Made by a program: the position numbers and the translations under genes. A stretch of DNA of 14,562 bases from the IMG/VR virus record IMGVR_UViG_2695420651_000023, positions 1-14,562 of that record. One strand, written 5' to 3'. The DNA comes from a virus (Duplodnaviria > Heunggongvirae > Uroviricota > Caudoviricetes). The notes beneath the pieces were generated by a model. It did not search any database. It saw only the letters and a program-made list of their open reading frames with translations, and had not been told where the DNA came from. Below, piece by piece: positions 1 to 14,562 of the stretch. Positions within the stretch are counted from its first letter, which is position 1; every line of letters starts with the position of its first letter.

Positions 1-23
1 GGCAGAAGCAGAAAAAGCTTATT

Positions 24-701
24 ATGCTTCCATCAGAAACGATGATCTGGCAGCCTGAGTTCACAGATAAAACACTCTCCAGGAAAACCGGGGCGGTTCA
101 TTTTGCTGCTCTACTTCCGGGGTTTTTGGCACTCAATAATTCTGTATGGGCAAGTGATTTGCCTGGTATGACTCTTAATGAACATGATTTAGTGATAGCC
201 CCACTTAACACCGAAGTTCCATTCTACATTGCAGGGCATCGCAGTCATAGCTCCCATCGGAGCCATAGTTCTCACCGTTCATCATCAGGTGGCGGGTACT
301 ATGGTGGCAGCACTCCCTATTATCCAAAAACATACAGCTCACCAAGTTCATCTGGGTCTTCAAGTTCAGGAACAAGTCCCTCATCGTCCTCTTCCTCTGT
401 GCGTTCGCTTCGTTCTAACGACAATAACAACTCTACTACTACGAATTCTGTTGGAACTACAGAAGCTAACCGTGCAAGTAATGGGCTGACTTCTGGTACA
501 GAGAAGCGTAAGCGCTTAATCATGCGGGTTCAATTCGCTTTGCTGGACAAAGATTATTACAACGGGAATATTGACGGCATAATGGGGCCTTCCACAAGGC
601 AGTCAATAAAAAATTATCGCATTGCGAACGGACTACCAGTGCCCTCAAGTGAAACCTTGGATATACAGTTGTTAAATTCATTAAGTATTTTAGCTCGATA
701 A
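24..701 (+). CDS. secreted His-Xaa-Ser-repeat protein with Ser-rich linker and C-terminal peptidoglycan-binding (PG_binding_1-like) domain
   Basis: N-terminal hydrophobic stretch AVHFAALLPGFLALNNSVWA followed by SD (signal-peptide-like, AXA-type site). Repeat HRSHSSHRSHSSHRSSS. Long S/T/G/N-rich low-complexity linker. C-terminus DGIMGPSTRQSIKNYRIANGLPV resembles PG-binding domain. Reading frame is open upstream to the window edge, so the true start could be 24, 42, or outside the window. Confidence 0.6.
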   Translation: MLPSETMIWQPEFTDKTLSRKTGAVHFAALLPGFLALNNSVWASDLPGMTLNEHDLVIAPLNTEVPFYIAGHRSHSSHRSHSSHRSSSGGGYYGGSTPYYPKTYSSPSSSGSSSSGTSPSSSSSSVRSLRSNDNNNSTTTNSVGTTEANRASNGLTSGTEKRKRLIMRVQFALLDKDYYNGNIDGIMGPSTRQSIKNYRIANGLPVPSSETLDIQLLNSLSILAR

Positions 702-769
702 ATTAAGTATATTAAAAATTTTTCACTTTAACATTAACTTGTATGAATATATATTTCAGAGGCGATTAA

Positions 770-2581
770 ATGTCAGTCAGCTATAACATATATAGAATGC
801 CATATAAGAGTCTTCCAGAATTGACAAAAAAAATCATTAAAGAAGGGCTTGTCGAACAAAAAACTATTCTACATCAATCTTATCAACTCAAATTTTATTT
901 TTCTGATAAATTAAAAGGAAATGAAGTATGGTGGTGGGATGTTTTTAGTGATTTCTTCAATGAAGAAATTGAAAAGCCTCATAATATATTCTATTTTGGC
1001 CTGCTAATAGGATTTAAAGAAAAGGACCCTGAGAATTGCTATCTTATCAGTCTTGGTAAATCACATTTTTATCTCAGCAAGTTTATTGAAGCAGACTTTG
1101 GGCTGAATGTGGCAATGCGTATAGCTAATGATGAAAATATTTTACTCAAGAAAAGCAGATTCTTTTGTGGGGGAAAGAGTCAGGAGGCATCCTCATACTC
1201 ACAGTTTGTTCAAGGAGCATATTTTCCTGGCGAATCCATCGAGCATCTCAAAACAAAAGCCAAAGAAACTGACAAGTGGGGATGTAATAATATAACTTTT
1301 TCTGATTCAATTCAGCTAAGTTTGGATGGTGCTCCTACTGCATTAGTCGATGTTTTCAATGATATTGATTCTTCGTTGGCAACCAAAGAGAAAATCGAAT
1401 TTCCTAAATCGGAAAAAATCACTGACGAGTCAAAGATAGATGAGCTTGATAATTGTCTACTTCAATCGATCATTACAGATGATGCAAAAGTTATTATTGA
1501 TGAGATTCAATCTTTTGGTGCCTCTATTGTAATTAATAATTCTTTGACATTTTTTAAATTGCACACAAAAGTTGAGGGGAGTGGAAAGTATCTTCAATCA
1601 TCAGATAAAATTAATGACATAAAAATAGCAGATGTAAAGAAATTCATAAAAAATAACAACATAAAAGATGTCAATAAAGTTTTTGTTAAGATAACTAATG
1701 AAAATAACAGTGGTCATACAGCCTCGTTAAAAGAAATATTGAGCATTACTTATAGCGAGGGCAGCGAGCACTTCTTCCTTAAGAGGGGAGGATGGAGTCG
1801 ATTTAACTCTGCTTTTATGAAGTATTTGTCTACTTCTTTAGCCAGTATAAAATTTGAGGTTAAAGATGCTCTTAAGGAAGACGACTTCAAAGTATGGCAA
1901 GCTGAAAAAATAAAACAAATCGCAGAAGGAACTTCTAAAGACAAATTAGAATATAGAGAATATTATTTTAATGAAAAGATGTCTGATGAGAAAGGTTATA
2001 TACTTCTAGATCGCCAGCTAAAAAAAATACCATCCTTACGTGATAATGGCAAGGACTACAATGTTGAAGTTGCAGATCTTTATAAAAATGGAGAGATTAT
2101 TGCTGTAAAGATATCAGATAAACCGCATGATCTAATTTATAATATTGAACAGTCAAAAACCACAATTCAAACTATAGTAAGAGGAGTAGTAAAATTTGAA
2201 GAGACAATTACTGATGTGGTTTTATGGATCTCAACTACTACAAAAGCTAAAAAATTAATTGACATCAATTCTATTCAATTTTTATTAGCGGTTCAAACTT
2301 GGAAGGAAGTTGTTGAAGGATTTAATCTGAAACCAAAGATATATTATTCACATCACGATAAACCCCAAAAGAAAAAGGGAAAGAAAAAAACGCATCTTAA
2401 ATCTGAACTTAGAATTGGTTATGGAGAAAGATATCAGGTTATAGCGTCTCAGTATCGCTCCAATATTTGTGTGGATTATGTATCACCGATACTACCAAAA
2501 TTATTATGTTTTAGGTATGGTGATTTACCGCCATACCTCTTTTGTATTTATCTCGCAATGATGTTGTTTACTTTTGTTTAA
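770..2581 (+). CDS. hypothetical protein, 603 aa, AT-rich orphan; candidate defence/abortive-infection protein
   Basis: Long uninterrupted ORF with SD GAGG 7 nt before the ATG. K/N/I-rich composition and very low GC. No TM segments and no catalytic motif (Walker A, HNH, RT YxDD) recognisable by eye. Confidence 0.7.
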   Translation: MSVSYNIYRMPYKSLPELTKKIIKEGLVEQKTILHQSYQLKFYFSDKLKGNEVWWWDVFSDFFNEEIEKPHNIFYFGLLIGFKEKDPENCYLISLGKSHFYLSKFIEADFGLNVAMRIANDENILLKKSRFFCGGKSQEASSYSQFVQGAYFPGESIEHLKTKAKETDKWGCNNITFSDSIQLSLDGAPTALVDVFNDIDSSLATKEKIEFPKSEKITDESKIDELDNCLLQSIITDDAKVIIDEIQSFGASIVINNSLTFFKLHTKVEGSGKYLQSSDKINDIKIADVKKFIKNNNIKDVNKVFVKITNENNSGHTASLKEILSITYSEGSEHFFLKRGGWSRFNSAFMKYLSTSLASIKFEVKDALKEDDFKVWQAEKIKQIAEGTSKDKLEYREYYFNEKMSDEKGYILLDRQLKKIPSLRDNGKDYNVEVADLYKNGEIIAVKISDKPHDLIYNIEQSKTTIQTIVRGVVKFEETITDVVLWISTTTKAKKLIDINSIQFLLAVQTWKEVVEGFNLKPKIYYSHHDKPQKKKGKKKTHLKSELRIGYGERYQVIASQYRSNICVDYVSPILPKLLCFRYGDLPPYLFCIYLAMMLFTFV

Positions 2582-2984
2582 GTCTTCTAAGCTTCATACT
2601 TTCTAATGAGAATAATAATAGAGTTGTGCTGTATATAAAACCAGAGTTAGTTAATAACTTTAAATTTAATGCTTCAGGATTTTCACTGAGAAAATGAAAG
2701 GCATAAACTAAGTATACAGCTAAAGCAGCCGTTCCAATTGTTGGTCCAATATCGCCTTGATCATGAGGTTCAAGGTTTACATTGAATTTAAAGATTAGCC
2801 ATTCAAATCCCCAAGTAAAAAAAACAACTAATATCATGGCTGCGAATAATTTCGCGATGTTATCTGCTGATGGATTCATCAGAACAGATTGTTTCTGAAA
2901 AAATTCACAAAGTGAGAGTCCGAAAAAAATAAAAAAAAGTGGTCTGGAACTAAATTTTTCAAAAACTTTGAATAGGGTTTCCAT
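2568..2984 (-). CDS. small integral membrane protein, 138 aa, about 4 predicted TM helices
   Basis: Four hydrophobic stretches (LFFIFFGLSLCEFF, AAMILVVFFTWGFEWLIF, IGTAALAVYLVYAFHFL, IYSTTLLLFSL). Starts 38 bp downstream of the int stop on the same strand. Its 3' end overlaps the convergent 603-aa gene by 14 bp. Confidence 0.55.
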   Translation of the reverse strand: METLFKVFEKFSSRPLFFIFFGLSLCEFFQKQSVLMNPSADNIAKLFAAMILVVFFTWGFEWLIFKFNVNLEPHDQGDIGPTIGTAALAVYLVYAFHFLSENPEALNLKLLTNSGFIYSTTLLLFSLESMKLRRLKQK

Positions 2985-3022
2985 TTTCTTTACCTTCAGG
3001 ATTATATTAGCTATTCTGATAC

Positions 3023-4252
3023 TTAGGCTACCAGAGCATTTGATCTTTGAGCTTGAACGTAATCACTCCACCATTGCATCAAACTCTGTCGCTCTATCAG
3101 ATATTCTGCACGATTGTATGCTGCGATAATTTCATCTTTTTTCGAGTGGGCAAGCGCTGCCTCAAGAACTTCAGCTCTGAATTTACCAGACTCCTCTGCC
3201 GCTGTTCGCGCAATAGAACGCATACCGTGAGCTACAAGCTCGCCTCCGAACCCCATTCGGATGATAGCTGCGTTGGCTGTTTGTTCATGCATATGATTAA
3301 GAGGCGCTTTAATGCTGGGGAAAACCCATTCTCTATGCCCACTTATTGATTTCATTAATTCAAGGATGCGCAAAGCTTCTTTACTCAAAGGAACTTTGTG
3401 AGGCTTTTTCATTTTCATGAAATCAGCAGGAATGTTCCAAATGCTGTTGGTTGTATCAATATCAGACCATCTTGCGCGAACGGCTTCACCCGGACGAACC
3501 CATGTCAACAATTGCCATTCAATTAGCATACGTGTTTCCAACCGGATTGACGCATTCGTCAAAGATTCCATAAACCTTGGCAATTCGCTTGGGGGAAGGG
3601 CAGGCATATTTTGCTTTTTTGGTTTACTGAATCTTTGACCAAGGTTGTCAGCCGGGTTGAACTCAATAAGTTCTTCAGTAGCTGCCCACCTGAAGATTTC
3701 ATTCAGACGTGAAATGATACGGCGTAGAGTTTCCAATACGCCTCGTTGCTTAATAGGATCAAGGTGTTGTTTTAAGAGCTTAGGCCGGATCTCATTGATA
3801 GGGACATTACCCAGACCAGGAAAGACATTTCTCTCTAAGCTGCGCCAGATGTCTGCTGCATGGTCTTGTGAGATACCTGATGTCTTTACCTTCTCATCTA
3901 ACCATTTCCGCGCTACGGCTTGGAGAGTGTGCTCAGTAGCACTCTTTAATGCCTTCGCCTTATCGTTGTTATGGATTTGTGGATCAACACCATTTGCCAG
4001 AAAGGAAAGATATTCATCACGTAAGGCTCTGGCTCTTGCCAGTGTAAGGTGAGGATAGGTCCCAAGGCTCATTTTGGTTCTTTTTTTACTCACTGGCACT
4101 GCATACCTGAAATACCAATTCTTCTTTCCTCCTTTCGAGAGGGGAGCGATTCGTAGTATCAAACCATCTCCGTCAAACAAGTTGATTTCTTTGTCGGCTG
4201 GCTTGGTGCTTTTGATTTCAGTGTCAGTGAGCTTCTTAGCGATTTTTGCCAT
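3023..4252 (-). CDS. int: tyrosine recombinase, P4-family integrase (N-terminal arm-binding domain)
   Basis: N-terminus MAKIAKKLTDTEIKSTKPADKEINLFDGDGLILRI...WYFRY is typical of P4/CP4-57 IntA-type integrases. Start moved from 4294 to the ATG at 4252, which has SD GAGGG 7 nt upstream. C-terminal catalytic region contains R...H..R and a Tyr-containing segment. Confidence 0.9.
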   Translation of the reverse strand: MAKIAKKLTDTEIKSTKPADKEINLFDGDGLILRIAPLSKGGKKNWYFRYAVPVSKKRTKMSLGTYPHLTLARARALRDEYLSFLANGVDPQIHNNDKAKALKSATEHTLQAVARKWLDEKVKTSGISQDHAADIWRSLERNVFPGLGNVPINEIRPKLLKQHLDPIKQRGVLETLRRIISRLNEIFRWAATEELIEFNPADNLGQRFSKPKKQNMPALPPSELPRFMESLTNASIRLETRMLIEWQLLTWVRPGEAVRARWSDIDTTNSIWNIPADFMKMKKPHKVPLSKEALRILELMKSISGHREWVFPSIKAPLNHMHEQTANAAIIRMGFGGELVAHGMRSIARTAAEESGKFRAEVLEAALAHSKKDEIIAAYNRAEYLIERQSLMQWWSDYVQAQRSNALVA

Positions 4253-4349
4253 TTTGGGACCCTCGGTTTTTGGACCCTTCTTAGTGGGTCTCATTCAGGG
4301 TGCCATAACTCGTAGTTCTCAGCAATTCTCACTGGACGACAATAGACGT

Positions 4350-4381
4350 AAAAAAGCCCGCAGAGCTTGTGCTGTGCGGGC
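4350..4381 (-). terminator. rho-independent terminator on the minus strand, between the ssrA fragment and int
   Basis: Plus strand reads AAAAAA + GCCCGCAGAGC + TTGT + GCTGTGCGGGC (11-bp stem, one mismatch). On the minus strand this is hairpin followed by TTTTTT. Confidence 0.5.
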
Positions 4382-4417
4382 TTAGTAGACTTCATTGTAC
4401 TTCAAACAACTAAAAAG

Positions 4418-4464
4418 TGGTGGAGCTGGCGGGAGTTGAACCCGCGTCCGAAATTCCTACATAC
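4418..4464 (-). repeat. ssrA: 3'-terminal ~47 nt of ssrA (tmRNA), att core repeat; not a complete tmRNA gene
   Basis: Reverse complement reads ATGTAGGAATTTCGGACGCGGGTTCAACTCCCGCCAGCTCCACCA, the acceptor/T-arm end of enterobacterial tmRNA as I recall it. Sequence further upstream (4465 onward) is unrelated to tmRNA. Confidence 0.8.
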
Positions 4465-4612
4465 CATTTTTACCATAACAAAAACATTAAGTTTCGTTTA
4501 AAATCAGTCTGTTATTGTTATTTTGTGTTTGTCCGTTTTACGCTTTTTTAATGTTCTGCCGCCAAAATGCCGCCACATTGTAGGTATTAAGTCTGCTATT
4601 TATCACCTGTTG

Positions 4613-5509
4613 TTAAGACACGCGGGCATCGTACCCATACAAGTCTTGAAAGCATGAGTAAAACAATTCTTGATTGTTGAGTTCGCCCTTTGTTTCCGGT
4701 ATTTCACTCTGTAGAAAATTTTTATTAATTGTCCACTCAATAGCTAAAGTATTAGTGTAGTTTGTTGAACTACTAATTTTAGCATTATTAGGATGAAAAA
4801 GTTGCTGTATAAATTCAATATCTGAATCAAGTGAAATAAAATGTATGTTTGCATTATCTTTTAATCTATCATCAAATCTAAGTTGGATAGTGGTTTTGTA
4901 ATGATTAAAATCAGCAATTGGGTTATAAGATGAAAAATTTTTACTTTTAAATTTTAATATCTTCTCAGCTCGTTGGCTTCCAAAGATATACATCAGAGCT
5001 ACAATTGTAAACGGTTGGTTTTTAAATTCATTAAACTCGTTTACTATCTCTTTAAACTCATAATATGTATTCTCTCGTTGTTCTACTTTCTTTGTTTCCC
5101 CTATTTTTTCTTGTAGCTTATCAAGGAATTTTGTTTTTTTATCTATTAATCTGTCAGTTTCTTTTTCATATATTATTTTTGATAGTTTATTTACATTGGA
5201 TGTTAGGAAATCATAATCAGTGTTAGCTTCTTTAATAAATGATTTTACAATTTCACTATCCTCTATAATTAATTTTCTTATTTTTTTATTAGGTGTTTTT
5301 ATGATTTCTAATTTGCCGTTACTGTCAAGTTTTTTATGGGTTTTTCCTTCTATTATTGATAGTAAAGGTGAGAAAGTATTTCCTTTGATATCTAATGCTT
5401 TTAATTTATTAAGCATATCAATTCTATTAGGTTCTGGGATATTAGAAGAATTGTTGTGCTTATTCATTAGATCAATTATGTTTCGATCTAAAAGGTAGAG
5501 CTCTGTCAT
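4613..5509 (-). CDS. hypothetical protein, 298 aa, AT-rich moron between prophage int and att
   Basis: ORF begins 12 bp downstream of the int stop on the same strand. K/N/I/E-rich, very low GC. No TM segments or recognisable motifs. Confidence 0.7.
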   Translation of the reverse strand: MTELYLLDRNIIDLMNKHNNSSNIPEPNRIDMLNKLKALDIKGNTFSPLLSIIEGKTHKKLDSNGKLEIIKTPNKKIRKLIIEDSEIVKSFIKEANTDYDFLTSNVNKLSKIIYEKETDRLIDKKTKFLDKLQEKIGETKKVEQRENTYYEFKEIVNEFNEFKNQPFTIVALMYIFGSQRAEKILKFKSKNFSSYNPIADFNHYKTTIQLRFDDRLKDNANIHFISLDSDIEFIQQLFHPNNAKISSSTNYTNTLAIEWTINKNFLQSEIPETKGELNNQELFYSCFQDLYGYDARVS

Positions 5510-5521
5510 AATAATTACCTT

Positions 5522-6547
5522 TTAATTAGTAGAAAAAAGAGTGGCTAAAGGATTTTTTGTCACCGCATCTTCAAGATGCTCTGGTGCGAAATGAGCATAA
5601 ATCATGGTCATTTTTATATCGGTATGGCCTAAAATTTCTTTAAGCACAAGTATATTACCGCCATTCATCATAAAGTGGCTGGCGAATGTATGGCGTAGCA
5701 CGTGGGTGCATTGTCCTTCTGGCAGTTCGATACCGGCCCGCTTTACTGCCCGCTCAAAGGCTTTTCTGCATGGTGTGAATAATTTCCCTCTATTTTTGGG
5801 AAGTTCGTCATACAGATCCTGAGATATTGGCACGGTACGGTTTTTCTTGCCCTTCGTCTTGGTGTATGTGATGCGGTATTTTGACAACTGGTGTCCCTGC
5901 AGATTTTCTGCTTCACTCCAGCGTGCTCCGGTGGCCAGGCATATTTTTGCAATCATCAGCAGGCTGGGGCTTTGAGAATCTGCGCAGGCATCCAACAGGC
6001 GCTTGATTTCGTCCATGGAAAGAAAGGCCAGCTCACCTTCAGCAATTTTAAATGTAGGAAGTCCTGCCAGTGGGTTTGGTGCTGACCAGTGTCCCAGCTT
6101 TTTCAGTGTGCCAAAAACCGATGACAGGTTGCGTTGTTCAAGATTTACCGTGCGGGGCTTAACAGGCGACATAAGCGCGCCATCTTCATTTCGCACTTCA
6201 CCCTTTAGCCGTGCTTCCCGGTATTTCGTAAAATCACCGGCGGTCAGTTCTGAAGCGATGGGATCGCCCAGACCATTACAGATAATTTTAAGTTTCGCCA
6301 TCAGGCGTTTGGGGTCAGCAAGCGTCTGCCCGTAAAGTGAGTACCATTGTTCAATCACTTCTGACAAATGTCGCCGATCTTCCTTTTCCCCCAGCCACGG
6401 TTTTTTGTTCACTTCTTCCATTGTGAAACGTTCAAACGCAATGGCTTCGCCTTTTGTCGCAAATTGTTTACGTACGCGTTTGCCATCTCGCCCGTTTGGG
6501 TAGCATTCACACAACCACTTTCCGTTCGGCTGTTTTCTGATCGTCAT
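5522..6547 (-). CDS. int: tyrosine integrase, P2/186 family
   Basis: N-terminus MTIRKQPNGKWLCECYPNGRDGKRVRKQFATKGEAIAFE resembles P2 Int. C-terminal HVLRHTFAS...GH...IYAH catalytic box. Start lies 2 bp after the cI stop. Confidence 0.9.
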   Translation of the reverse strand: MTIRKQPNGKWLCECYPNGRDGKRVRKQFATKGEAIAFERFTMEEVNKKPWLGEKEDRRHLSEVIEQWYSLYGQTLADPKRLMAKLKIICNGLGDPIASELTAGDFTKYREARLKGEVRNEDGALMSPVKPRTVNLEQRNLSSVFGTLKKLGHWSAPNPLAGLPTFKIAEGELAFLSMDEIKRLLDACADSQSPSLLMIAKICLATGARWSEAENLQGHQLSKYRITYTKTKGKKNRTVPISQDLYDELPKNRGKLFTPCRKAFERAVKRAGIELPEGQCTHVLRHTFASHFMMNGGNILVLKEILGHTDIKMTMIYAHFAPEHLEDAVTKNPLATLFSTN

Positions 6548-6549
6548 TA

Positions 6550-7182
6550 TTAGATGCTCTTAATCACTTTTACCACACGCCCTACAACGGCTACGTCATC
6601 AACTGCACATTCAAAGGTTGTTTCTTCCTGATGAACAACAAGCTTATTTCCGGGAATTCGAGCTACTTTTACGATGCTTTTCACTCCATCAATATCAACA
6701 AGCCAAGAGCCATTACTGATCTGTTTTACAGATACATCAACAATAAAACTTTCTGTTGTCGTTTGTATGAATAGATAGTTTGACGAATCGCCCTCAACCA
6801 ACCTGCTATCTAATAAAATTTCGTCATATGATTGAAGTTCACCATTTCTTAATTCTGTGTATTTGATACTGGGAGCTACGATTTTAGAAAGTGGTCTAAT
6901 TGTGACGTCATTATCATTTTTGAGAATGTTTGAGTCACAGTTATCTGCATACATATCACCCTGTCCGGTTGCCAACCAAAGAAGCGAGATCCCGGTTTCT
7001 AGAGCACATTGAATTACCCACTCTGCTGGAAAGCTATCTCTTAAGTATCTGTTTGCCATGGTGCTTTTAGATACTTTTAAGTGTTCGCAGAGTTGTTGGC
7101 GTGAGCTGAAATTGTAGGCTTTTATCAGCCTGTTGATGGCATCACGCCCCCCACTATCGTTTCCACCCTTGATTAGACTCAT
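6550..7182 (-). CDS. cI: CI-type immunity repressor (186-like), N-terminal HTH
   Basis: Start moved from 7314 to the ATG at 7182 (MSLIKGGN...), which has a G-rich SD. HTH-like segment QQLCEHLKVSKSTMANRYL. Sits immediately upstream of int and divergent from the apl-like gene. Confidence 0.75.
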   Translation of the reverse strand: MSLIKGGNDSGGRDAINRLIKAYNFSSRQQLCEHLKVSKSTMANRYLRDSFPAEWVIQCALETGISLLWLATGQGDMYADNCDSNILKNDNDVTIRPLSKIVAPSIKYTELRNGELQSYDEILLDSRLVEGDSSNYLFIQTTTESFIVDVSVKQISNGSWLVDIDGVKSIVKVARIPGNKLVVHQEETTFECAVDDVAVVGRVVKVIKSI

Positions 7183-7300
7183 AATCAAACCCCCCCTGAC
7201 GCATATAAAATGAGATCTTAATATCCATTCATGGTTTGAAAAGCAAAACCAAACCACATAAAACGAGATGATACGATTACAAACTAAGAGATACTGCACT
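7183..7300. promoter_or_regulatory. lysis/lysogeny switch region between cI and the apl-like gene (promoters and operators)
   Basis: 118-bp AT-rich divergent intergenic region. Inverted repeat TGGTTT-N8-AAACCA at 7232..7251. TTGAAA hexamer at 7236..7241. Confidence 0.4.
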
Positions 7301-7549
7301 ATGAGCAACGACATTTCAATTCGTGTACCAAAAGTGATGGCGACACCAGCTGAGTTCGCGGAATGGGAAGGCCGCTCTCGCGGTTCGGTATATCAAATGA
7401 TTCATAATGGAAAACTCGCTAAATTCTTGGAAAGAAAAGAAAAACCGAAAGACAGAGTATGTATACGTTACCTTGAGTACAAAAAGGAACAAGTCAGGAA
7501 AAACATGGGCCAATCCAATTTCAACTTTAATGTCATCGTTGGTGACTAA
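7301..7549 (+). CDS. Apl/Cox-like small HTH protein (excisionase/transcriptional repressor)
   Basis: 82 aa; HTH-like segment ATPAEFAEWEGRSRGSVYQMIHNGKL. First rightward gene opposite cI. Start choice (7301 versus 7268 or 7337) is uncertain. Confidence 0.55.
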   Translation: MSNDISIRVPKVMATPAEFAEWEGRSRGSVYQMIHNGKLAKFLERKEKPKDRVCIRYLEYKKEQVRKNMGQSNFNFNVIVGD

Positions 7550-7581
7550 GTTCAATTATGAGAACTTTCTAAGGGGGCAGC

Positions 7582-8091
7582 ATGTTTGATTACAAGATTT
7601 CCAAACATCCGCATTTTGATGAAGCCTGTAGAGCTTTTGCACTACGTCACAATATGGCGAAGCTGGCAGAACGTGCAGGAATGAATGTTCAGACACTGCG
7701 AAACAAACTCAACCCAGATCAACCGCATCAGCTCACCGCATCAGAAATCTGGCTGCTTACCGATCTGACTGAAGATTCAACGCTGGTAGATGGTTTTCTG
7801 GCACAGATTCACTGCCTGCCATGTGTACCGATTAATGAGGTAGCAAAAGAGAAACTGCCGCATTACGTCATGAGTGCAACCGCAGAGATCGGGCGTGTTG
7901 CTGCAGGTGCGGTATCTGGCGATGTAAAAACCAGTGCAGGTCGTCGTGATGCTATCAGCAGCATTAACTCTGTAACACGACTGATGGCGCTGGCTGCTGT
8001 TTCATTGCAGGCCCGTTTACAGGCTAACCCTGCGATGGCGAGTGCAGTTGATACCGTGACTGGCCTCGGTGCTTCATTCGGATTGCTGTGA
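7582..8091 (+). CDS. cII: CII-like regulatory protein (186 CP76 family)
   Basis: 169 aa, the same length as 186 CII as I recall it. Sits immediately after the apl-like gene with a G-rich SD. Confidence 0.55.
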   Translation: MFDYKISKHPHFDEACRAFALRHNMAKLAERAGMNVQTLRNKLNPDQPHQLTASEIWLLTDLTEDSTLVDGFLAQIHCLPCVPINEVAKEKLPHYVMSATAEIGRVAAGAVSGDVKTSAGRRDAISSINSVTRLMALAAVSLQARLQANPAMASAVDTVTGLGASFGLL

Positions 8092-8265
8092 GGTGCTTAT
8101 GCTGACGAAAGAACCATCATTTGCATCGCTGCTGGTAAAACAAAGTCCGGCAATGCACTACGGTCACGGCTGGATCATGGGTGAGGATGGTAAACGCTGG
8201 CATCCATGTCATTCACAAGATGAATTGCTGTCTGAATTGACCACGAGGAAACGGAGAAAGTCAAA

Positions 8266-8490
8266 ATGTATGCAGCGGAAAGTGAAGTGGTTTATCAGTT
8301 TCGTTACAGAGGGGAGAGTTATTCAGTACCTGAAGATGATTTGCTCTGTTGTTATCCGTCGTTGTCGGGCGATGGCAGTTACTTTTTCACGCTAAAGGAT
8401 GGGACGTTTTTACGGGGAGAGCAGGTTAAAGAGACGATACGAAAAAATGTATCTCCTCTTGAACGTTACCGTAAGAACAAAGAACGATAG
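8266..8490 (+). CDS. hypothetical early protein, 74 aa
   Basis: Good SD (GGAG, about 9-nt spacer). Protein-like composition. Overlaps an alternative ORF at 8099..8395 in another frame. Confidence 0.45.
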   Translation: MYAAESEVVYQFRYRGESYSVPEDDLLCCYPSLSGDGSYFFTLKDGTFLRGEQVKETIRKNVSPLERYRKNKER

Positions 8491-8512
8491 TTGCGTTTTG
8501 GGGATATGAATT

Positions 8513-8854
8513 ATGGCAATTAATGGCGCTGCGGCGACTGTTCCATTAAGCCCCGGTGAACGCCTGAATGGACTTAATCATATTGCGGAATTAAGGGCGA
8601 AAGTTTTTGGCCTGAATATTGAGTCAGAGCTTGAGCGGTTTATTAAAGATATGCGTGATCCACGGGATATCAATAATGAACAAAATAAACGGGCACTGGC
8701 TGCTATATTCTTTATGGCAAAAATTCCAGCTGAACGTCATAGCATCAGCATTAATGAGCTGACCACTGACGAAAAGCGGGAGCTGATTAAAGCAATGAAT
8801 CATTTTCGTGCGGTGGTGAGCTTATTTCCCAGACGGCTAACCATGCCGAATTAA
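8513..8854 (+). CDS. hypothetical phage early protein, 113 aa
   Basis: ATG with GGGGA SD. Balanced composition. Sits in the early operon. Confidence 0.55.
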   Translation: MAINGAAATVPLSPGERLNGLNHIAELRAKVFGLNIESELERFIKDMRDPRDINNEQNKRALAAIFFMAKIPAERHSISINELTTDEKRELIKAMNHFRAVVSLFPRRLTMPN

Positions 8855-8921
8855 CCAACTAATGAAATTAATGGCGTAAACCCGCCGGGCATCCCTTTAT
8901 CTAAATTCAGGAGAATTGATT

Positions 8922-9155
8922 ATGCGTAATATTGAAATCCTCACGACTAAAACCGGACCGGATGATGCAGGGCTTAATATTTTACTGACAGAGGCTCGTC
9001 TGGAAGAACGCCGGGCAAGGGCTGAAGCAATGGCAGCTCGCCTTGATAGCCTGGCGTGTCATATCTCATCCCGTCAGCTAAACCACGTGGAAGCGGCAGA
9101 ACTGCTGCGTGTGACTGCTGAAGCAATCCAGAACGAAGCGCAGGAGATCCACTAA
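8922..9155 (+). CDS. hypothetical phage early protein, 77 aa
   Basis: Start taken at the ATG at 8922 (SD CAGGAG, 8-nt spacer) rather than the TTG at 8916. Stop overlaps the next gene's start (TAATG). Confidence 0.55.
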   Translation: MRNIEILTTKTGPDDAGLNILLTEARLEERRARAEAMAARLDSLACHISSRQLNHVEAAELLRVTAEAIQNEAQEIH

Positions 9156-9382
9156 TGGCTGATGCAATGGATCTCGTACAGCAGCGCGTTGAAGAAGAAC
9201 GCCAGCGCTATATCCGTGCTGCCCGTGCCAAAACACCGGGCGTGTCTCGTGTGCTTTGTATTGAATGTGAAGCGCCAATTCCGCCAGCACGACGCCGCGC
9301 CATTCCTGGAGTGCAGCTTTGCATTACCTGTCAGGAAATCGCAGAGCTGAAAGGCAAACATTACAACGGAGGTGTTGTATGA
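9155..9382 (+). CDS. TraR/DksA-family C4 zinc-finger protein
   Basis: CIECEAPIPPARRRAIPGVQLCITC gives Cys-x2-Cys-x17-Cys-x2-Cys. Translationally coupled to both neighbours. Confidence 0.75.
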   Translation: MADAMDLVQQRVEEERQRYIRAARAKTPGVSRVLCIECEAPIPPARRRAIPGVQLCITCQEIAELKGKHYNGGVV

Positions 9383-10236
9383 GTACCATCCTGAAATGGG
9401 CGGGAAATAAAACCGCCATTATGTCCGAACTGAAAAAACATCTTCCTGCTGGCCCGCGACTGGTTGAACCTTTCGCGGGTTCCTGTGCTGTGATGATGGA
9501 GACGGATTACCCCAGCTATCTTGTTGCGGATATTAATCCTGATTTAATCAACCTCTATAAAAAGGTTGCTGCTGATTGCGAGGCGTTTATATCTCGTGCC
9601 AGAGCTTTATTTGAGGAAGCAAACAGGGAGGTGGCTTATTACAACATAAGGCAGGAGTTTAATTACTCCACTGAAATTACTGATTTCATGAAAGCGGTAT
9701 ATTTCCTGTATCTCAATCGTCATGGTTACCGTGGGTTATGTCGCTATAACAAGAGCGGGCATTTCAACATTCCGTACGGTAATTATAAAAATCCGTATTT
9801 CCCTGAAAAAGAAATTCGCGCATTTGCAGAGAAAGCCCAGCGGGCAACGTTTATCTGCGCCAGCTTTGATGAAACGCTGGCGATGTTGAAGGCGGGGGAT
9901 GTGGTGTATTGCGATCCGCCTTATGACGGTATGTTTTCCGGCTATCACACTGACGGCTTCACTGAAGATGACCAGTATCACCTGGCATCCGTTCTTGAAC
10001 ATCGGTCATCAGAAGGACATCCGGTCATTGTTTCTAACAGTGACACATCCCTGATCCGTTCGCTGTATCGCAATTTTACTCACCACTACATCAAGGCAAA
10101 ACGCAGCATCGGCGTGGCAGCTGGTGAGAGTAAATCTGCAACAGAAATCATCGCTGTTTCCGGGCCGCGCTGCTGGGTAGGATTTGATCCTTCGCGTGGC
10201 GTGGATTGTTCCGTCGTGTACGGAGTGCGTGCATGA
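9379..10236 (+). CDS. dam: DNA adenine methyltransferase (Dam-like, N6-adenine, GATC-type)
   Basis: Strong similarity to E. coli Dam as I recall it: [37 protein letters not shown] (motif IV DPPY). Start at 9379 (SD GGAGGTG) overlaps the upstream stop (ATGA). Confidence 0.9.
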
Positions 10237-12647
10237 GCCATGCTGATATGAACAACTGCAGCGGCTTTAACGAGTTCGCCGCAGCATTCTCATGGAACAG
10301 CCCGAAAAAGGCCATTAACCCTTATCTGGACCCGGCGGAAGTTGCGCCGGTTTCTGCGCTTTCAAACCTGATCACTCTGTACGCTGCCGATAACGAGCAG
10401 GAACAACTGCGCCGCGAGGCACTGAGTGATCAGGTCTGGGAGCGTTATTTCTTTAATGAATCCCGTGATCCTGTCCAGCGCGAAATGGAACAGGATAAGC
10501 TCATTAGTCGGGCAAAGCTGGCGCATGAGCAGCAGCGTTTTAATCCGGATATGGTCATTCTGGCGGACGTCAACGCCCAGCCTTCCCATATCAGCAAGCC
10601 GCTGATGCAACGTATTGAATACTTCAGCAGCCAGGGCAGGCCAAAGGCTTATTCCCGCTATTTACGTGAGACGATTAAGCCATGTCTGGAACGGCTGGAG
10701 CATGTACGCGACAGTCAGCTATCCACTTCTTTTCGCTTTATGGCAAGCCATGAAGGGCTGGACGGCCTGCTGATTCTGCCTGAAATGAGTCAGGATCAGG
10801 TGAAACGCCTGTCCACCCTTGTTGCTGCGCATATGAGCATGTGCCTTGATGCAGCTTGTGGCGATTTGTATGCCACCGATGACGTTAAGCCAGAAGAAAT
10901 CCGCAAGACATGGGAAAGGGTGGCGGCGGAAACCCTGCGTCTGGATGTCATCCCACCTGCGTTTGAGCAACTCCGCCGGAAAAGAAACCGCCGTAAACCC
11001 GTGCCCTATGAACTCATTCCGGGTTCGCTGGCGCGTATGTTGTGCGCCGACTGGTGGTATCGGAAATTATGGAAGATGCGTTGCGAATGGCGGGAGGAGC
11101 AGTTGCGCGCTGTCTGCCTGGTTAGCAAAAAAGCATCTCCTTATGTCAGCTATGAAGCCGTGATGCATAAACGTGAGCAGCGCCGTAAGTCGCTGGAGTT
11201 TTTCCGTTCTCATGAACTGGTGAACGAAGACGGCGACACGCTGGACATGGAGGATGTGGTAAACGCCAGCAGCAGCAACCCTGCGCATCGCCGCAATGAG
11301 ATGATGGCCTGTGTTAAAGGTCTGGAGCTTATCGCGGAAATGCGCGGTGACTGCGCCGTTTTCTACACCATCACCTGTCCGTCACGTTTCCATTCCACGC
11401 TAAATAACGGCAGGCCCAACCCAACCTGGACAAATGCGACGGTAAGACAAAGTAGTGATTATCTGGTCGGCATGTTTGCTGCATTTCGTAAGGCGATGCA
11501 CAAAGCCGGATTGCGCTGGTATGGCGTGCGGGTGGCTGAGCCGCATCATGACGGTACAGTTCACTGGCACCTGTTGTGTTTTATGCGCAAAAAAGACCGC
11601 CGCGCCATCACTGCATTACTGCGTAAGTTTGCCATCCGTGAAGACCGCGATGAGCTGGGCAATAACACTGGGCCGCGCTTTAAGTCTGAGTTGATTAACC
11701 CGCGCAAAGGTACGCCAACAAGCTACATCGCGAAATACATCAGTAAGAACATTGACGGGCGTGGTCTGACTGGCGAGATCAGCAAGGAAACGGGGAAATC
11801 CCTGCGTGATAATGCTGAATACGTTAATGCCTGGGCGTCTCTGCATCGTGTTCAGCAATTCCGCTTCTTTGGCATTCCGGGGCGTCAGGCTTACCGTGAA
11901 CTGCGATTGCTGGCTGGTCAGGCGGCAAGGCAACAGGGGGACAAAAAAGCAGGTGCGCCGGTACTGGATAACCCGCGCCTTGATGCAATCCTGGCTGCTG
12001 CTGATGCTGGTTGTTTTGCCACCTACATCATGAAGCAGGGCGGCGTACTGGTTCCCCGCAAATATCACCTGATCAGAACCGCTTATGAAATCAACGAAGA
12101 GCCGACCGCCTATGGCGATCACGGCATTCGTATTTATGGCATCTGGTCACCCATTGCAGAGGGCAAGATCTGCACTCATGCGGTGAAGTGGAAAATGGTT
12201 CGTAAGGCCGTTGACGTTCAGGAGGCGGCAGCCGACCAGGGCGCTTGCGCCCCTTGGACTCGTGGCAATAACTGTCCCCTTGCTGAAAATTTGAACCAAC
12301 AAGGGAAAGACAAATCAGCTGATGGGGATACCAGAACGGAAATCACCCGCATGGATGACAAGGAATTGCACGATTACCTGCACAGTATGAGCAAAAAAGA
12401 GCGCCGGGAACTGGCAGCAAGGTTACGCCTGGTTAAACCGAAACGGCGTAAAGACTACAAACAGCGAATTACAGATCATCAGCGACAGCAGCTCGTCTAT
12501 GAACTGAAGTCCAGAGGATTTGATGGCAGCGAGAAAGAGGTCGATTTACTCCTTCGCGGCGGCAGTATTCCGTCAGGAGCAGGCCTGCGTATCTTCTATC
12601 GGAACCAGCGTCTGCAGGAGGATGATAAATGGCGGAACCTGTATTAA
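10233..12647 (+). CDS. replication initiation endonuclease, P2/186 gene A family (rolling-circle, HUH-type)
   Basis: HUH-like motif [13 protein letters not shown] and twin-tyrosine motif [10 protein letters not shown] (phiX174 gpA / P2 A type YxxKY). Start at 10233 overlaps the dam stop (ATGA). 804 aa. Confidence 0.85.
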
Positions 12648-12741
12648 TTACGCAGGTTAACAATTCGTGCTCTTAATAATACCAGGCATATCAGGCTGAT
12701 GAGCGTAAAAAAACGTTTTACATCAGTAAGATTATTATATG

Positions 12742-12757
12742 CTGTAAATATAAACAG
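12742..12757. promoter_or_regulatory. LexA (SOS) box upstream of the tum/dinI-like operon
   Basis: CTGTAAATATAAACAG matches the CTGT-N8-ACAG consensus. Lies 43 bp upstream of the ATG at 12800, with a TATACA -10-like hexamer just downstream. Confidence 0.6.
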
Positions 12758-12799
12758 TGGTTATGTATACAGTGTTGCTTTGGTGTCATAGGAGGAAAG

Positions 12800-12988
12800 A
12801 TGCAGGACTATTTTTTGGAGTCTTTGAAGCTCCAGCGCATTGATTTTTTTCTTAAGCTTGTAGCGGCTAGTGAGTGTAGTGATGAAGAGAAGGGGCTGGC
12901 CCTGCAGTGGGTTTCTGAACTGACAGATGAACTCATGGCAAAAATCAGAACCCACGAATACAACCGCTCAATGGATGTCATCAGCTGA
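12800..12988 (+). CDS. small SOS-operon protein, 62 aa; candidate Tum-like antirepressor (N-terminal part)
   Basis: AGGAGG SD 6 nt upstream. First gene after the LexA box. Position corresponds to 186 tum. Confidence 0.5.
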   Translation: MQDYFLESLKLQRIDFFLKLVAASECSDEEKGLALQWVSELTDELMAKIRTHEYNRSMDVIS

Positions 12989-12998
12989 GGTGACTTTT

Positions 12999-13232
12999 AT
13001 GCGCATTGAAATAATGATCGATAAAGAGCAGAAGATTAGCCAGTCTACCCTGGACGCTCTGGAGTCAGAGCTTTACCGCAACCTGCAACCCATCTATCCC
13101 AAGACAGCTATCCGCATCCGTAAAGGGTCGGCAAACGGCGTTGAGCTGAGTGGCTTAAAGCTTGATGAAGACAAAAAGCGGGTGATGGAAATTATGCAGC
13201 AGGTTTGGGAAGACGACAGCTGGCTGCACTAA
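12999..13232 (+). CDS. DinI-family protein, 77 aa
   Basis: MRIEIMIDK...LDALESEL...DEDKKRVMEIMQQVWEDDSW aligns by eye with E. coli DinI (MRIEVTIAK...IDALAGEL...KEDKQRISEILQETWESADDW). Start at the ATG at 12999 with SD GAGGTG. Confidence 0.8.
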   Translation: MRIEIMIDKEQKISQSTLDALESELYRNLQPIYPKTAIRIRKGSANGVELSGLKLDEDKKRVMEIMQQVWEDDSWLH

Positions 13233-13305
13233 GGAACGTTCCTGATGTAAGAACTTGATTCTGACGTCAGCAAGGTTGAACAACGAGAGTAGCGAGGCGT
13301 TAGCC

Positions 13306-13566
13306 ATGGGTAAAAAAGACAGTAATCACCAGATTATTTATCGGGGCCAGGTGCTGGAACGGTTTACCCCTGGCGGCTGGGTCTTCTTTCAACGCCCAAA
13401 GGAGTGTGGCGGAGGTTTTTGGTTGGGCCGCACCTATGAAGACTGCTTCTGGCTTGAGCTGGAATTCCCCGTTTCGCTATATGACGGCCTGGAGTTTTTG
13501 ATGGAAGTCACCAGGGTAGAGCAGAGAAGTGATGAGGTTGACGCGAATTATTCCCTGTTTGATTAA
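13306..13566 (+). CDS. hypothetical protein, 86 aa
   Basis: ATG at 13306 with GAGG SD; the track's upstream extension uses a TTG start. No recognisable motifs. Confidence 0.5.
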   Translation: MGKKDSNHQIIYRGQVLERFTPGGWVFFQRPKECGGGFWLGRTYEDCFWLELEFPVSLYDGLEFLMEVTRVEQRSDEVDANYSLFD

Positions 13567-13585
13567 AAATGTATTAGCTTATAAT
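13559..13585 (+). promoter_or_regulatory. sigma70-like promoter for the 203-aa gene
   Basis: -35 TTGATT (13559..13564), 15-bp spacer, perfect -10 TATAAT (13580..13585), about 30 bp upstream of the ATG at 13615. Confidence 0.45.
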
Positions 13586-13614
13586 GGAATACTATTTTTG
13601 CAGGTGGGGGCGCA

Positions 13615-14226
13615 ATGGATTTAGTCTTTAAAATTCTGGCTTCGTTGGGTGGGGTGTCTTTTGTTGCATCTGGCATATTTGTTTGGATCGGGAAAGTTTA
13701 TTTAGAAAGATATAAGTCGCGGCTAAACAAAGATATTGCTGAATTTCAATCACAACTGAGTGCAACTAATGAAAGAATAAAGGCTAAGTTAGACAATTCT
13801 GTTTATGTAACGAAAGCGTATTTTGATAAGGAGTTATCAGCATATAGTCTCATTTGGAATTCGATGTTTGAAACCAGAGAAAGCGTGCTTAAGCTGAGGC
13901 CTGCGCTGGATCATTTTGACCCCAACGAACCATTTGAAGAGAGAAAATTTAGAAGGTTGAAAGTTTTTTTCGATGCATTTAATACTTTTGTTACAAGTGT
14001 TGAGTCTAACAAACCGTTCATCTCACCAGAGGTTTATATAATCTTGGACCGTTTCCGGAAGGAATGCCTTTCAGAGTCAATATCGTTTCAGCATGGCGAT
14101 CCAGAATTTGACTGGCAAAATTATTGGAAAGAGGCAGAGTTGAACCGTACAACCATCACCAAGCTTTTTGATGAGACGTGTGATGCAATTCGAGACAGGA
14201 TGCACACATTAACTGTGGTTACGTAG
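13615..14226 (+). CDS. membrane-anchored hypothetical protein, 203 aa (single N-terminal TM helix); candidate defence moron
   Basis: N-terminal hydrophobic helix ILASLGGVSFVASGIFVWIG, then a charged/coiled-coil-like region. Own promoter and strong SD AGGTGGGGG. Lower GC than the phage core. Confidence 0.7.
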   Translation: MDLVFKILASLGGVSFVASGIFVWIGKVYLERYKSRLNKDIAEFQSQLSATNERIKAKLDNSVYVTKAYFDKELSAYSLIWNSMFETRESVLKLRPALDHFDPNEPFEERKFRRLKVFFDAFNTFVTSVESNKPFISPEVYIILDRFRKECLSESISFQHGDPEFDWQNYWKEAELNRTTITKLFDETCDAIRDRMHTLTVVT

Positions 14227-14317
14227 TTTTCCAAAAAGTCTCGATGCCCGCTTTGGCGATTGTGCATGTCTATGCCGCATGAATCCGCATGATCGTTTGA
14301 GGATCGTTTTAGCTGAG

Positions 14318-14341
14318 GCCCGCTAGGAATGGCGGGCTTTT
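14318..14341 (+). terminator. rho-independent terminator
   Basis: GCCCGC + 8-nt loop TAGGAATG + GCGGGC, followed by TTTT. Confidence 0.55.
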
Positions 14342-14386
14342 GCTTATGTCATGCAGGCGCATGAAAACCACTACATAAAGCGGGCA

Positions 14387-14405
14387 GGCGTGGCGGGGAT
14401 ACGAG
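14387..14405. other. cos-like site (P2/186-type cohesive end)
   Basis: GGCGTGGCGGGGATACGAG resembles the 19-nt P2/186 cohesive end (GGCG[A/T]GGCGGGGA...) as recalled from memory. Position between the early region and the expected late genes fits the P2 map. Confidence 0.35.
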
Positions 14406-14562
14406 CGCGCGCTCATGGTTGAATTAATGAAATTATGGTGTTAAATAGGCTAGCTTTTGGTGATGCTGCCAACTTACTGATTTAGTGTATGATGGTGTTT
14501 TTGAGGTGCTCCAGTGGCTTCTGTTTCTATCAGCTGTCCCTCCTGTTCAGCTACTGACGGGG

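Follow-up and report, generated by a model that had tools for sequence, protein, structure and literature searches.

The accessory genes tin and old of phage P2 are, by position, the closest described counterparts of the gene treated here. The product of old is a nuclease of the ABC-ATPase/TOPRIM type, and that of tin a soluble protein that acts on gp32 of T-even phages. The gene in question encodes a protein of 203 amino acids (aa) and lies on the plus strand at 13615-14226 of a 14,562-nucleotide stretch of DNA from a tailed phage (Caudoviricetes; IMG/VR record IMGVR_UViG_2695420651_000023, positions 1 to 14,562), the whole of which is referred to below as the window. Like tin and old, it is an accessory, prophage-expressed gene that occupies the same slot of a P2-family prophage, and the content of this slot varies among relatives. 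The 203-aa protein has no sequence or domain relation to the two P2 proteins; unlike Old and Tin, it is predicted to be membrane-anchored and all-helical, without a nuclease or ATPase motif.

The interval between replication gene A (gpA) and the portal gene, in which P2 carries old and tin, was described by Rousset et al. 2022 (PMC9122126) as a hotspot that holds many validated defence systems. The same protein is present in their Table S5B as System #39 (no Pfam, 103 occurrences, one transmembrane (TM) segment by Phobius), curated as a single-gene system. The System #39 representative differs from the window protein at two residues, and LF82_789 from the Cartapus prophage of E. coli LF82 (Misson et al. 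2023, PMC9928086) is identical to it. The gene thus already has two earlier entries, System #39 and the Cartapus moron LF82_789, both without a function and worded only as 1 TM, hypothetical protein or moron. The present analysis adds the protein family, the predicted fold and topology, the modular N-terminal segment and the gene's independence from its neighbours; the result is a well-characterised candidate and not a system of a new kind.

Most safely, the gene can be described as a genuine, autonomous, lysogen-expressed cargo of the P2 hotspot, and its product, with topology and fold predicted, as a membrane-anchored cytoplasmic four-helix-bundle protein belonging to a large uncharacterised family. 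Its most likely role would be single-gene phage exclusion or abortive infection, as an earlier sequence-only reading of the window had proposed; we place the probability of this role at roughly 0.45. The gene, its signals and the parts of its product are the following:

13559-13585, plus strand: candidate own promoter, with TTGATT at 13559-13564, a 15-bp spacer and a perfect TATAAT at 13580-13585
13602-13607, plus strand: strong Shine-Dalgarno sequence AGGTGG, 7 nt ahead of the ATG of the 203-aa gene
13615-14226, plus strand: coding sequence of the 203-aa protein (Cartapus gp47, LF82_789, WP_000366628; Rousset P2-hotspot System #39)
13633-13692, plus strand: TM helix, residues 7-26, rich in small residues (G12, G13, S15, A18, S19, G20, G26)
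13693-13809, plus strand: basic juxtamembrane segment and coiled-coil-like stalk, residues 27-65 (predicted local distance difference test score, pLDDT, 66-78)
13810-14220, plus strand: C-terminal four-helix bundle, residues 66-202, predicted to be cytoplasmic (pLDDT 85-96)
14315-14345, plus strand: intrinsic-terminator-like hairpin of 11 G+C-rich pairs (14315-14340) running into TTTTGCTT

The open reading frame (ORF) put forward from the letters alone holds in full: the 203-aa gene is genuine, starts with ATG and is under purifying selection (dN/dS 0.125 against an 83%-identical Enterobacter allele). Its base composition is foreign, with a G+C content of 0.36-0.41 versus 0.50-0.56 in gpA. The promoter had been called near-consensus, which is correct for the perfect TATAAT only, since TTGATT, the sole -35-like hexamer near the gene, matches the consensus at four of six positions and the spacer measures 15 bp; because of this spacer, a consensus scan does not call the promoter. 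The promoter block is conserved in homologous loci, i.e., in Enterobacter prophages and in a chromosomal island copy, where the -10 element reads TATACT instead of TATAAT. The strong Shine-Dalgarno sequence was found as claimed, and so was the succession of a terminator and a cos-like site: the hairpin, which a simple terminator scan had left unlisted, is followed by the core GGCGTGGCGGGG at 14387. The traits by which hotspot cargo is recognized (an own promoter, a terminator and a deviant G+C content) are all present, in the form of a perfect -10 and a poor -35 element, a hairpin with a T-run and an AT-rich coding sequence. The gene is best described as an accessory cassette, or "moron", that is complete in itself and lies in the cos-proximal hotspot.

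The location of the gene between gpA (10206-12647) and the cos core, beyond which the portal gene follows in LF82, bears out the assignment to the tin/old position of P2. Comparison of this interval among related prophages, which the sequence-only reading had named as a check, reveals variable cargo. With the segment from the 3' end of gpA to cos as a query, the flanks are present in 1,269 complete E. coli genomes and the interior is kept in 40, while the 203-aa gene together with its downstream region is found in 52 of 5,426 E. coli genomes; overall, the flanks are shared by 1,269-1,278 genomes and the gene occurs in 40-52. The cos block is conserved in approximately 1,270 E. coli genomes. 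The variable slot lies between the DinI/Tum-like gene and cos, and elsewhere near-identical flanks enclose nothing, a GNAT gene or, on the opposite strand, a 141-aa gene, other alternative cargo being HNH, DUF4145 or DUF2971 genes. Sporadic in the slot and expressed in the lysogen, the gene is not a conserved gene of the lytic cycle.

Expression was assessed from the RNA sequencing data of LF82 analysed by Misson et al. 2023 (PMC9928086), i.e., from the identical allele in LF82 and not from the window's own strain. LF82_789 (2759532-2760143) is one of only two Cartapus morons in that study; in lysogeny broth (LB) it is expressed ~7-fold over the prophage background, with normalised counts of ~46 as compared to ~9 for the adjacent upstream gene (a ~5-fold difference) and ~6 for gpA. 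Its log2 values are 5.5 in LB overnight, 7.2-8.6 in Dulbecco's modified Eagle medium (DMEM) and 9.0-10.5 in macrophages (PMC9928086 data). As LF82_789 goes up in DMEM and macrophages, gpA remains flat, and CARTA_44-46 go up alongside CARTA_47 in macrophages. Taken together, the conservation of the promoter stretch in homologous loci and the LF82 data support a separate lysogen expression of the 203-aa gene. The macrophage increase may be partly due to SOS-driven read-through, because a LexA box precedes the upstream operon, itself induced in macrophages; as no terminator was found between this operon and the gene, read-through can, judging from the layout, add to the gene's own promoter.

The neighbours of the gene are exchanged or decay independently of it. 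In six Enterobacter-type P2-like prophages (loci L003-L008), the 83%-identical allele keeps its place near cos, whereas the cargo across cos (~6870-8960) differs in each of them: AIPR; STM3845 with a retron reverse transcriptase; an OLD-like ATPase/TOPRIM; AAA with RloB; Schlafen/AlbA with HATPase; and an unidentified gene. With the 203-aa gene constant and the across-cos cargo changing from locus to locus, it follows that exchange on one flank of cos is independent of that on the other. In the Enterobacter P2-like prophages, the PHROG-2100 gene upstream carries a frameshift, and in a non-P2 island beside smpB, which carries a 76%-identical allele of the 203-aa gene, it is cut to its last 25 codons. 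Because its neighbours decay or vary, the 203-aa gene appears to work alone, in agreement with the single gene postulated at the outset.

The family of the protein is considerably larger than its close homologs imply. A word-indexed search recovers close relatives only (≥67% identity), all in Enterobacteriaceae, whereas an exhaustive HMMER profile search yields 921 cluster representatives at E ≤ 1e-3, 386 of them also at E ≤ 1e-10; clusters are defined at 50% identity, and the family comprises at least 921 of them. Nearly all representatives are 185-230 aa long and align over the full length. Conserved positions include the TM-exit motif WLGKVW-x-RI and the bundle residues F70, E73, W81, R95, P96, P134, F135, E154, I192, R193, and R195. 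The remark that the protein has no recognisable family extends from inspection by eye to Pfam, NCBIfam and PADLOC: searches of these libraries with the protein, 55 family members and 36 module-sharing proteins (see below) return scattered coiled-coil noise only. The 203-aa protein has no match in PADLOC-DB v2, including its Tin, Old, Abi, PD-T4/T7/lambda and PDC candidate models, and each model is matched by at most one of the 55 family members or at most one of the 36 module-sharing proteins. Among PHROGs, the sole match is PHROG 26391. Among the E. coli genome matches, some ~98%-identical alleles are called "valyl-tRNA synthetase" in RefSeq; this name is an artefact, as the coiled stalk scores 16.7 bits against PF10458, below the cut-off of 25.9.

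A scan of species-representative genomes made with close homologs gives no confirmed locus, and another scan of such genomes recovers 173 relatives from Proteobacteria, Firmicutes, Bacteroidota, Planctomycetota, Cyanobacteria, Nitrospirota and candidate phyla. Of the 80 loci retained, about half match only the first 70-105 residues, i.e., the TM helix, SSWLGKVWANRILE and the start of the stalk. This module of TM helix and SSWLGKVWANRILE is joined to C-terminal regions of at least six kinds, helical, alike in size and unrelated in appearance, which likewise lack annotation in Pfam and PADLOC. The module-sharing proteins (loci L025-L096) are 180-280 aa long and 40-60% identical to the 203-aa protein over the TM helix and SSWLGKVWANRILE (e.g., L081:7983-8537 from Vibrio cholerae, L029:8001-8603 from Alteromonas, and L080:8001-8690 from Shewanella). 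A profile search with the N-terminal module alone gives short fragments only and no informative fusions. Tandem paralogs, suggested by the many neighbours of ~200 aa, were looked for and none was found. By analogy, a conserved module with swappable heads might be regarded as resembling the pattern of immune sensors.

Relatives occur in diverse genomic surroundings. One adjoins the immunity region of the Pseudomonas temperate phage Riah, another separates terS from terL in Clostridium phage Maintenon, and a third directly follows the integrase of a satellite-like Lactiplantibacillus element; family members hold accessory positions in four kinds of mobile element. Genes found next to 29 chromosomal members code, among others, for resolvases, integrases and phage structural proteins, and some for restriction-modification. 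Association with defence genes is strong inside P2-like prophages and weak for distant homologs. The family is accessory and often on mobile elements, and beyond P2-like phages no clear link to defence islands is seen.

The single N-terminal TM helix foreseen in the sequence-only reading is confirmed by hydropathy (Kyte-Doolittle mean 2.02 over residues 7-26, with no second hydrophobic segment in the protein) as well as by the one Phobius TM segment in Rousset Table S5B. The helix ends in the family motif W-I/L-G-K-V-Y/W. Its small residues are spaced ~7 residues apart (G12/G13, S19/G20, G26), a spacing that would suit a close packing of helices extending into the stalk. Lysine and arginine residues in the 15 positions after the TM helix outnumber those before it in 88 of 91 members (means 3.4 versus 0.4), with five after and one before in the 203-aa protein itself; by the positive-inside rule, this bias predicts that the N-terminus faces out and the C-terminus in, so that the bundle would be cytoplasmic. 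AlphaFold, run with a 65-sequence alignment, gives five concordant models (pLDDT 76-81) with helices at residues 2-92 (TM, stalk, and bundle helix 1), 107-131, 138-160, and 167-200. The soluble part had been described as coiled-coil-like, which is retained for the stalk (residues ~27-65) but gives way to a predicted four-helix bundle for residues 66-202.

Foldseek against the PDB ranks FAT domains and the ligand-binding domain of Tar at the top (best E 0.024, 9-14% identity); the likeness to such binding modules is one of fold only. In 4HB_MCP sensors (Tar, Tsr, TorS) the bundle is periplasmic, enclosed between two TM helices and connected to an output domain, whereas the 203-aa protein, with its predicted cytoplasmic bundle, has a single TM helix, no output domain and no Pfam match; here, as with the FAT domain, the resemblance is confined to the fold (identity 3-14%, Foldseek E ≥ 0.024). 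A fold search of BFVD gives nothing below E 0.03, a profile search of PDB sequences matches no solved structure, and neither the models nor Foldseek reveal an enzyme fold or a catalytic motif. A HEPN nuclease (Rx4-6H motif) was considered and rejected, as both the spacing and the conservation of the motif fail. HP1 orf1 (205 aa, from the int-cI region), flagged by Foldseek, is unrelated (hhalign probability 0.2%, seemingly two hydrophobic segments).

Phage exclusion or abortive infection is favoured because the gene is expressed in the lysogen, lies in a variable slot of the tin/old hotspot, is autonomous, has a foreign G+C content and is under purifying selection. It is further favoured because relatives occupy accessory slots of mobile elements, because an allele exists in the non-P2 smpB island, and because defence-type cargo of varied kinds is found across cos; and, on the side of the protein, because the five models converge, the charge bias holds for 88 of 91 members and the module is shared by at least six types of C-terminal region. 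The product would be an inner-membrane protein with a periplasmic N-terminus of six residues, followed by the small-residue-rich TM helix, a basic interfacial motif, a helical stalk and a cytoplasmic four-helix bundle. The variable four-helix head might bind or sense a phage-derived ligand in the cytoplasm, and the highly conserved TM-stalk module might be the effector, which could self-associate and compromise the membrane, leading to abortive infection, or else hold the bound target at the membrane. As a tentative extension, to which we assign a rather low probability, the TM-SSWLGKVWANRILE-stalk unit might represent a hitherto unrecognised cross-phylum membrane effector module with interchangeable cytoplasmic helical sensor heads, the whole forming a new superfamily of one-protein abortive-infection switches.

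Several observations weigh against a role in phage exclusion. Neither the protein nor its family has a Pfam, NCBIfam or PADLOC assignment, and no member is named. The distant chromosomal homologs are mostly orphans among housekeeping genes (recA, a tRNA synthetase, SecA), with only ~5 of 134 neighbours matching PADLOC models. The four-helix bundle is a generic fold, with a best Foldseek E-value of 0.024. The P2 hotspot also houses non-defence cargo, such as partition systems and a cytolethal distending toxin (Rousset et al. 2022, PMC9122126), and the 203-aa protein is absent from the tables of tested systems in that study (including Table S2). The literature searched yielded no paper in which the protein is named or its accession or motifs appear, and no record of a test of the protein.

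Ranked after phage exclusion or abortive infection, and rather unlikely by comparison, is a lysogenic conversion unrelated to phages, in which the membrane-tethered cytoplasmic protein would alter the envelope or stress physiology of the host, e.g., its survival in stationary phase, minimal medium or macrophages. The spread of the family over many phyla as orphan chromosomal genes beside housekeeping genes, the weak association with known defence genes and the existence of non-defence hotspot cargo all agree with such a role, and so does the rise in log2 expression from 5.5 in LB overnight through 7.2-8.6 in DMEM to 9.0-10.5 in macrophages. This rise is, however, not specific in DMEM, where the repressor and the other Cartapus moron increase alike, and in macrophages it parallels that of the SOS-controlled upstream genes, which points to read-through; besides, a gene found in as few as 52 of 5,426 E. 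coli genomes is sporadic, and its relatives recur in phage and satellite accessory slots. The third reading, to which we assign a low probability, is superinfection exclusion (Sie) at the inner membrane, by which genome entry would be blocked without killing of the cell, as for HK97 gp15, P22 SieA or T4 Imm. A single-pass membrane architecture and a position in a prophage are typical of Sie proteins, and the 203-aa protein is small, lysogen-expressed, prophage-borne and predicted to span the inner membrane once. HK97 gp15, lactococcal Sie2009 and T4 Sp, small phage or prophage proteins with one N-terminal TM helix and single-gene action, expose their C-terminal domain outside the cytoplasm. 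In the 203-aa protein, which shares no sequence similarity with them, only ~6 residues are predicted to be periplasmic and the C-terminal bundle is predicted to be cytoplasmic, given the charge bias in 88 of 91 members; the periplasm-exposed functional domain of the HK97 gp15 type is thus lacking by prediction, and a protein so oriented would not be placed to meet tape-measure or ejection proteins on the periplasmic side. That the TM module is conserved across phyla is also unusual for phage-specific Sie proteins.

Two further explanations tie the gene to its neighbourhood and are considerably less probable. It is very unlikely that the gene serves the cycle of its own prophage, as an accessory of the SOS/Tum induction module or in lysis timing, produced when the LexA operon fires. 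The gene lies directly 3' of the LexA box, orf62, the DinI/Tum-like gene and phrog_2100 without a terminator found in between, increases together with the LexA-operon genes in macrophages, and encodes a membrane protein with a small-residue-rich TM helix, as in holins and antiholins; yet it is missing from ~97% of the prophages with the same gpA, DinI and cos backbone, has relatives outside prophages, is expressed in the uninduced lysogen while its upstream neighbour is at background, and coexists in Cartapus with a complete holin, endolysin and spanin cassette located elsewhere. The least probable reading, rejected because the putative partners decay or vary, is that the gene constitutes one half of a two-gene system with phrog_2100 upstream or DUF4145 across cos. 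The order DinI, phrog_2100, 203-aa gene, cos, DUF4145 does recur in LF82 and several entries of Rousset Table S5A, and the expression profiles of CARTA_1 (DUF4145) and CARTA_47 are similar; against this, phrog_2100 is frameshifted in the Enterobacter prophages and reduced to 25 codons in the island copy, the across-cos gene is different in each of the six Enterobacter-type loci, IS1 is inserted between cos and the portal side in this window, and the curation by Rousset et al. was that of a single-gene system. A protein of similar build is the partner in the P4-hotspot "RT-nitrilase + 1TM" system (Rousset 2022, pFR76), which is cos-proximal and comprises ~230 aa with an N-terminal TM helix, a charged helical stalk and a helical domain. 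It needs its reverse-transcriptase partner, whereas the 203-aa gene stands alone, and the two proteins are not homologous (hhalign probability 1.8%).

The right half of the window corresponds to a P2/186-like (Peduoviridae) prophage with a P2-type integrase, a CI-type repressor, Cox/Apl, CII, Fil, a Dam methylase and replication gene A. After gpA, the order is orf62, the DinI/Tum-like gene (DinI domain match E 3.9e-24), the PHROG-2100 gene, the 203-aa gene, cos, and the end of IS1. The features around the gene are the following:

10206-12647: replication gene A (gpA)
12742-12757, plus strand: perfect LexA box CTGTAAATATAAACAG, ahead of the orf62, DinI/Tum-like and phrog_2100 operon
13306-13566, plus strand: upstream gene of 86 aa, PHROG 2100, with no known function; co-travels with the cargo and is dispensable
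14355-14413, no strand assigned: cos region, with the core GGCGTGGCGGGG starting at 14387
14459-14562, plus strand: left end of IS1, interrupting the cos-to-portal side of the hotspot; the window ends within IS1

The LexA box, together with the orf62 and DinI/Tum-like genes (12800-13232), constitutes a 186-type SOS antirepressor arrangement, which is consistent with the observation that the homologous Cartapus genes are induced in macrophages and gpA is not. Over positions 13559-14458 the window matches both E. coli LF82 and the phage record Cartapus (NC_070909) at 100% identity. The end of the Cartapus record corresponds to window position 14354, and the cos core falls within the 59 bp annotated as putative cos at the start of that record. 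The window departs from LF82 at 14459, where IS1 begins, and its left part also has different cargo. The left end of IS1 sits 53 bp past the 19-nt cos core; at the point of insertion, LF82 and Cartapus continue into the DUF4145 gene and then the portal gene. As the window ends inside IS1, the prophage may be disrupted or rearranged on the packaging side.

Further elements are located to the left. A second integrative element encodes a P4-type integrase (423 aa) and a 603-aa DUF6119 protein (770-2984 and 3023-4294), along with an overlapping multi-TM ORF of 138 aa on the other strand, without a PADLOC match. Between the P2-type integrase and the end of the prophage, i.e., at another known minor cargo site of P2-like phages, lies an AT-rich orphan gene of 298 aa (4613-5509, minus strand), without a Pfam or PADLOC match; at this site Cartapus instead has a RES-like gene and an exonuclease. 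Outside both mobile elements, an ORF of 225 aa (24-701, plus strand) contains a long Ser/His/Gly-rich low-complexity region and ends in a peptidoglycan-binding domain (PF01471, E 6e-5).

If the 203-aa protein blocks phages, a function would be given to an unnamed family of at least 900 sequence clusters, and a very compact single-gene membrane system would be added to the repertoire of the P2 hotspot. The shared N-terminal module with swappable heads constitutes a natural set of chimeras for separating sensor from effector; should the switch superfamily be real, the Cartapus/P2 gene would be its first tractable member in E. coli. Even if it does not block phages, only one other accessory gene of Cartapus is lysogen-expressed, and the gene remains a defined target for LF82 physiology. 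As it is highly expressed inside macrophages by the Crohn's-disease-associated LF82, it could affect phage therapy or the prophage ecology of this pathogen.

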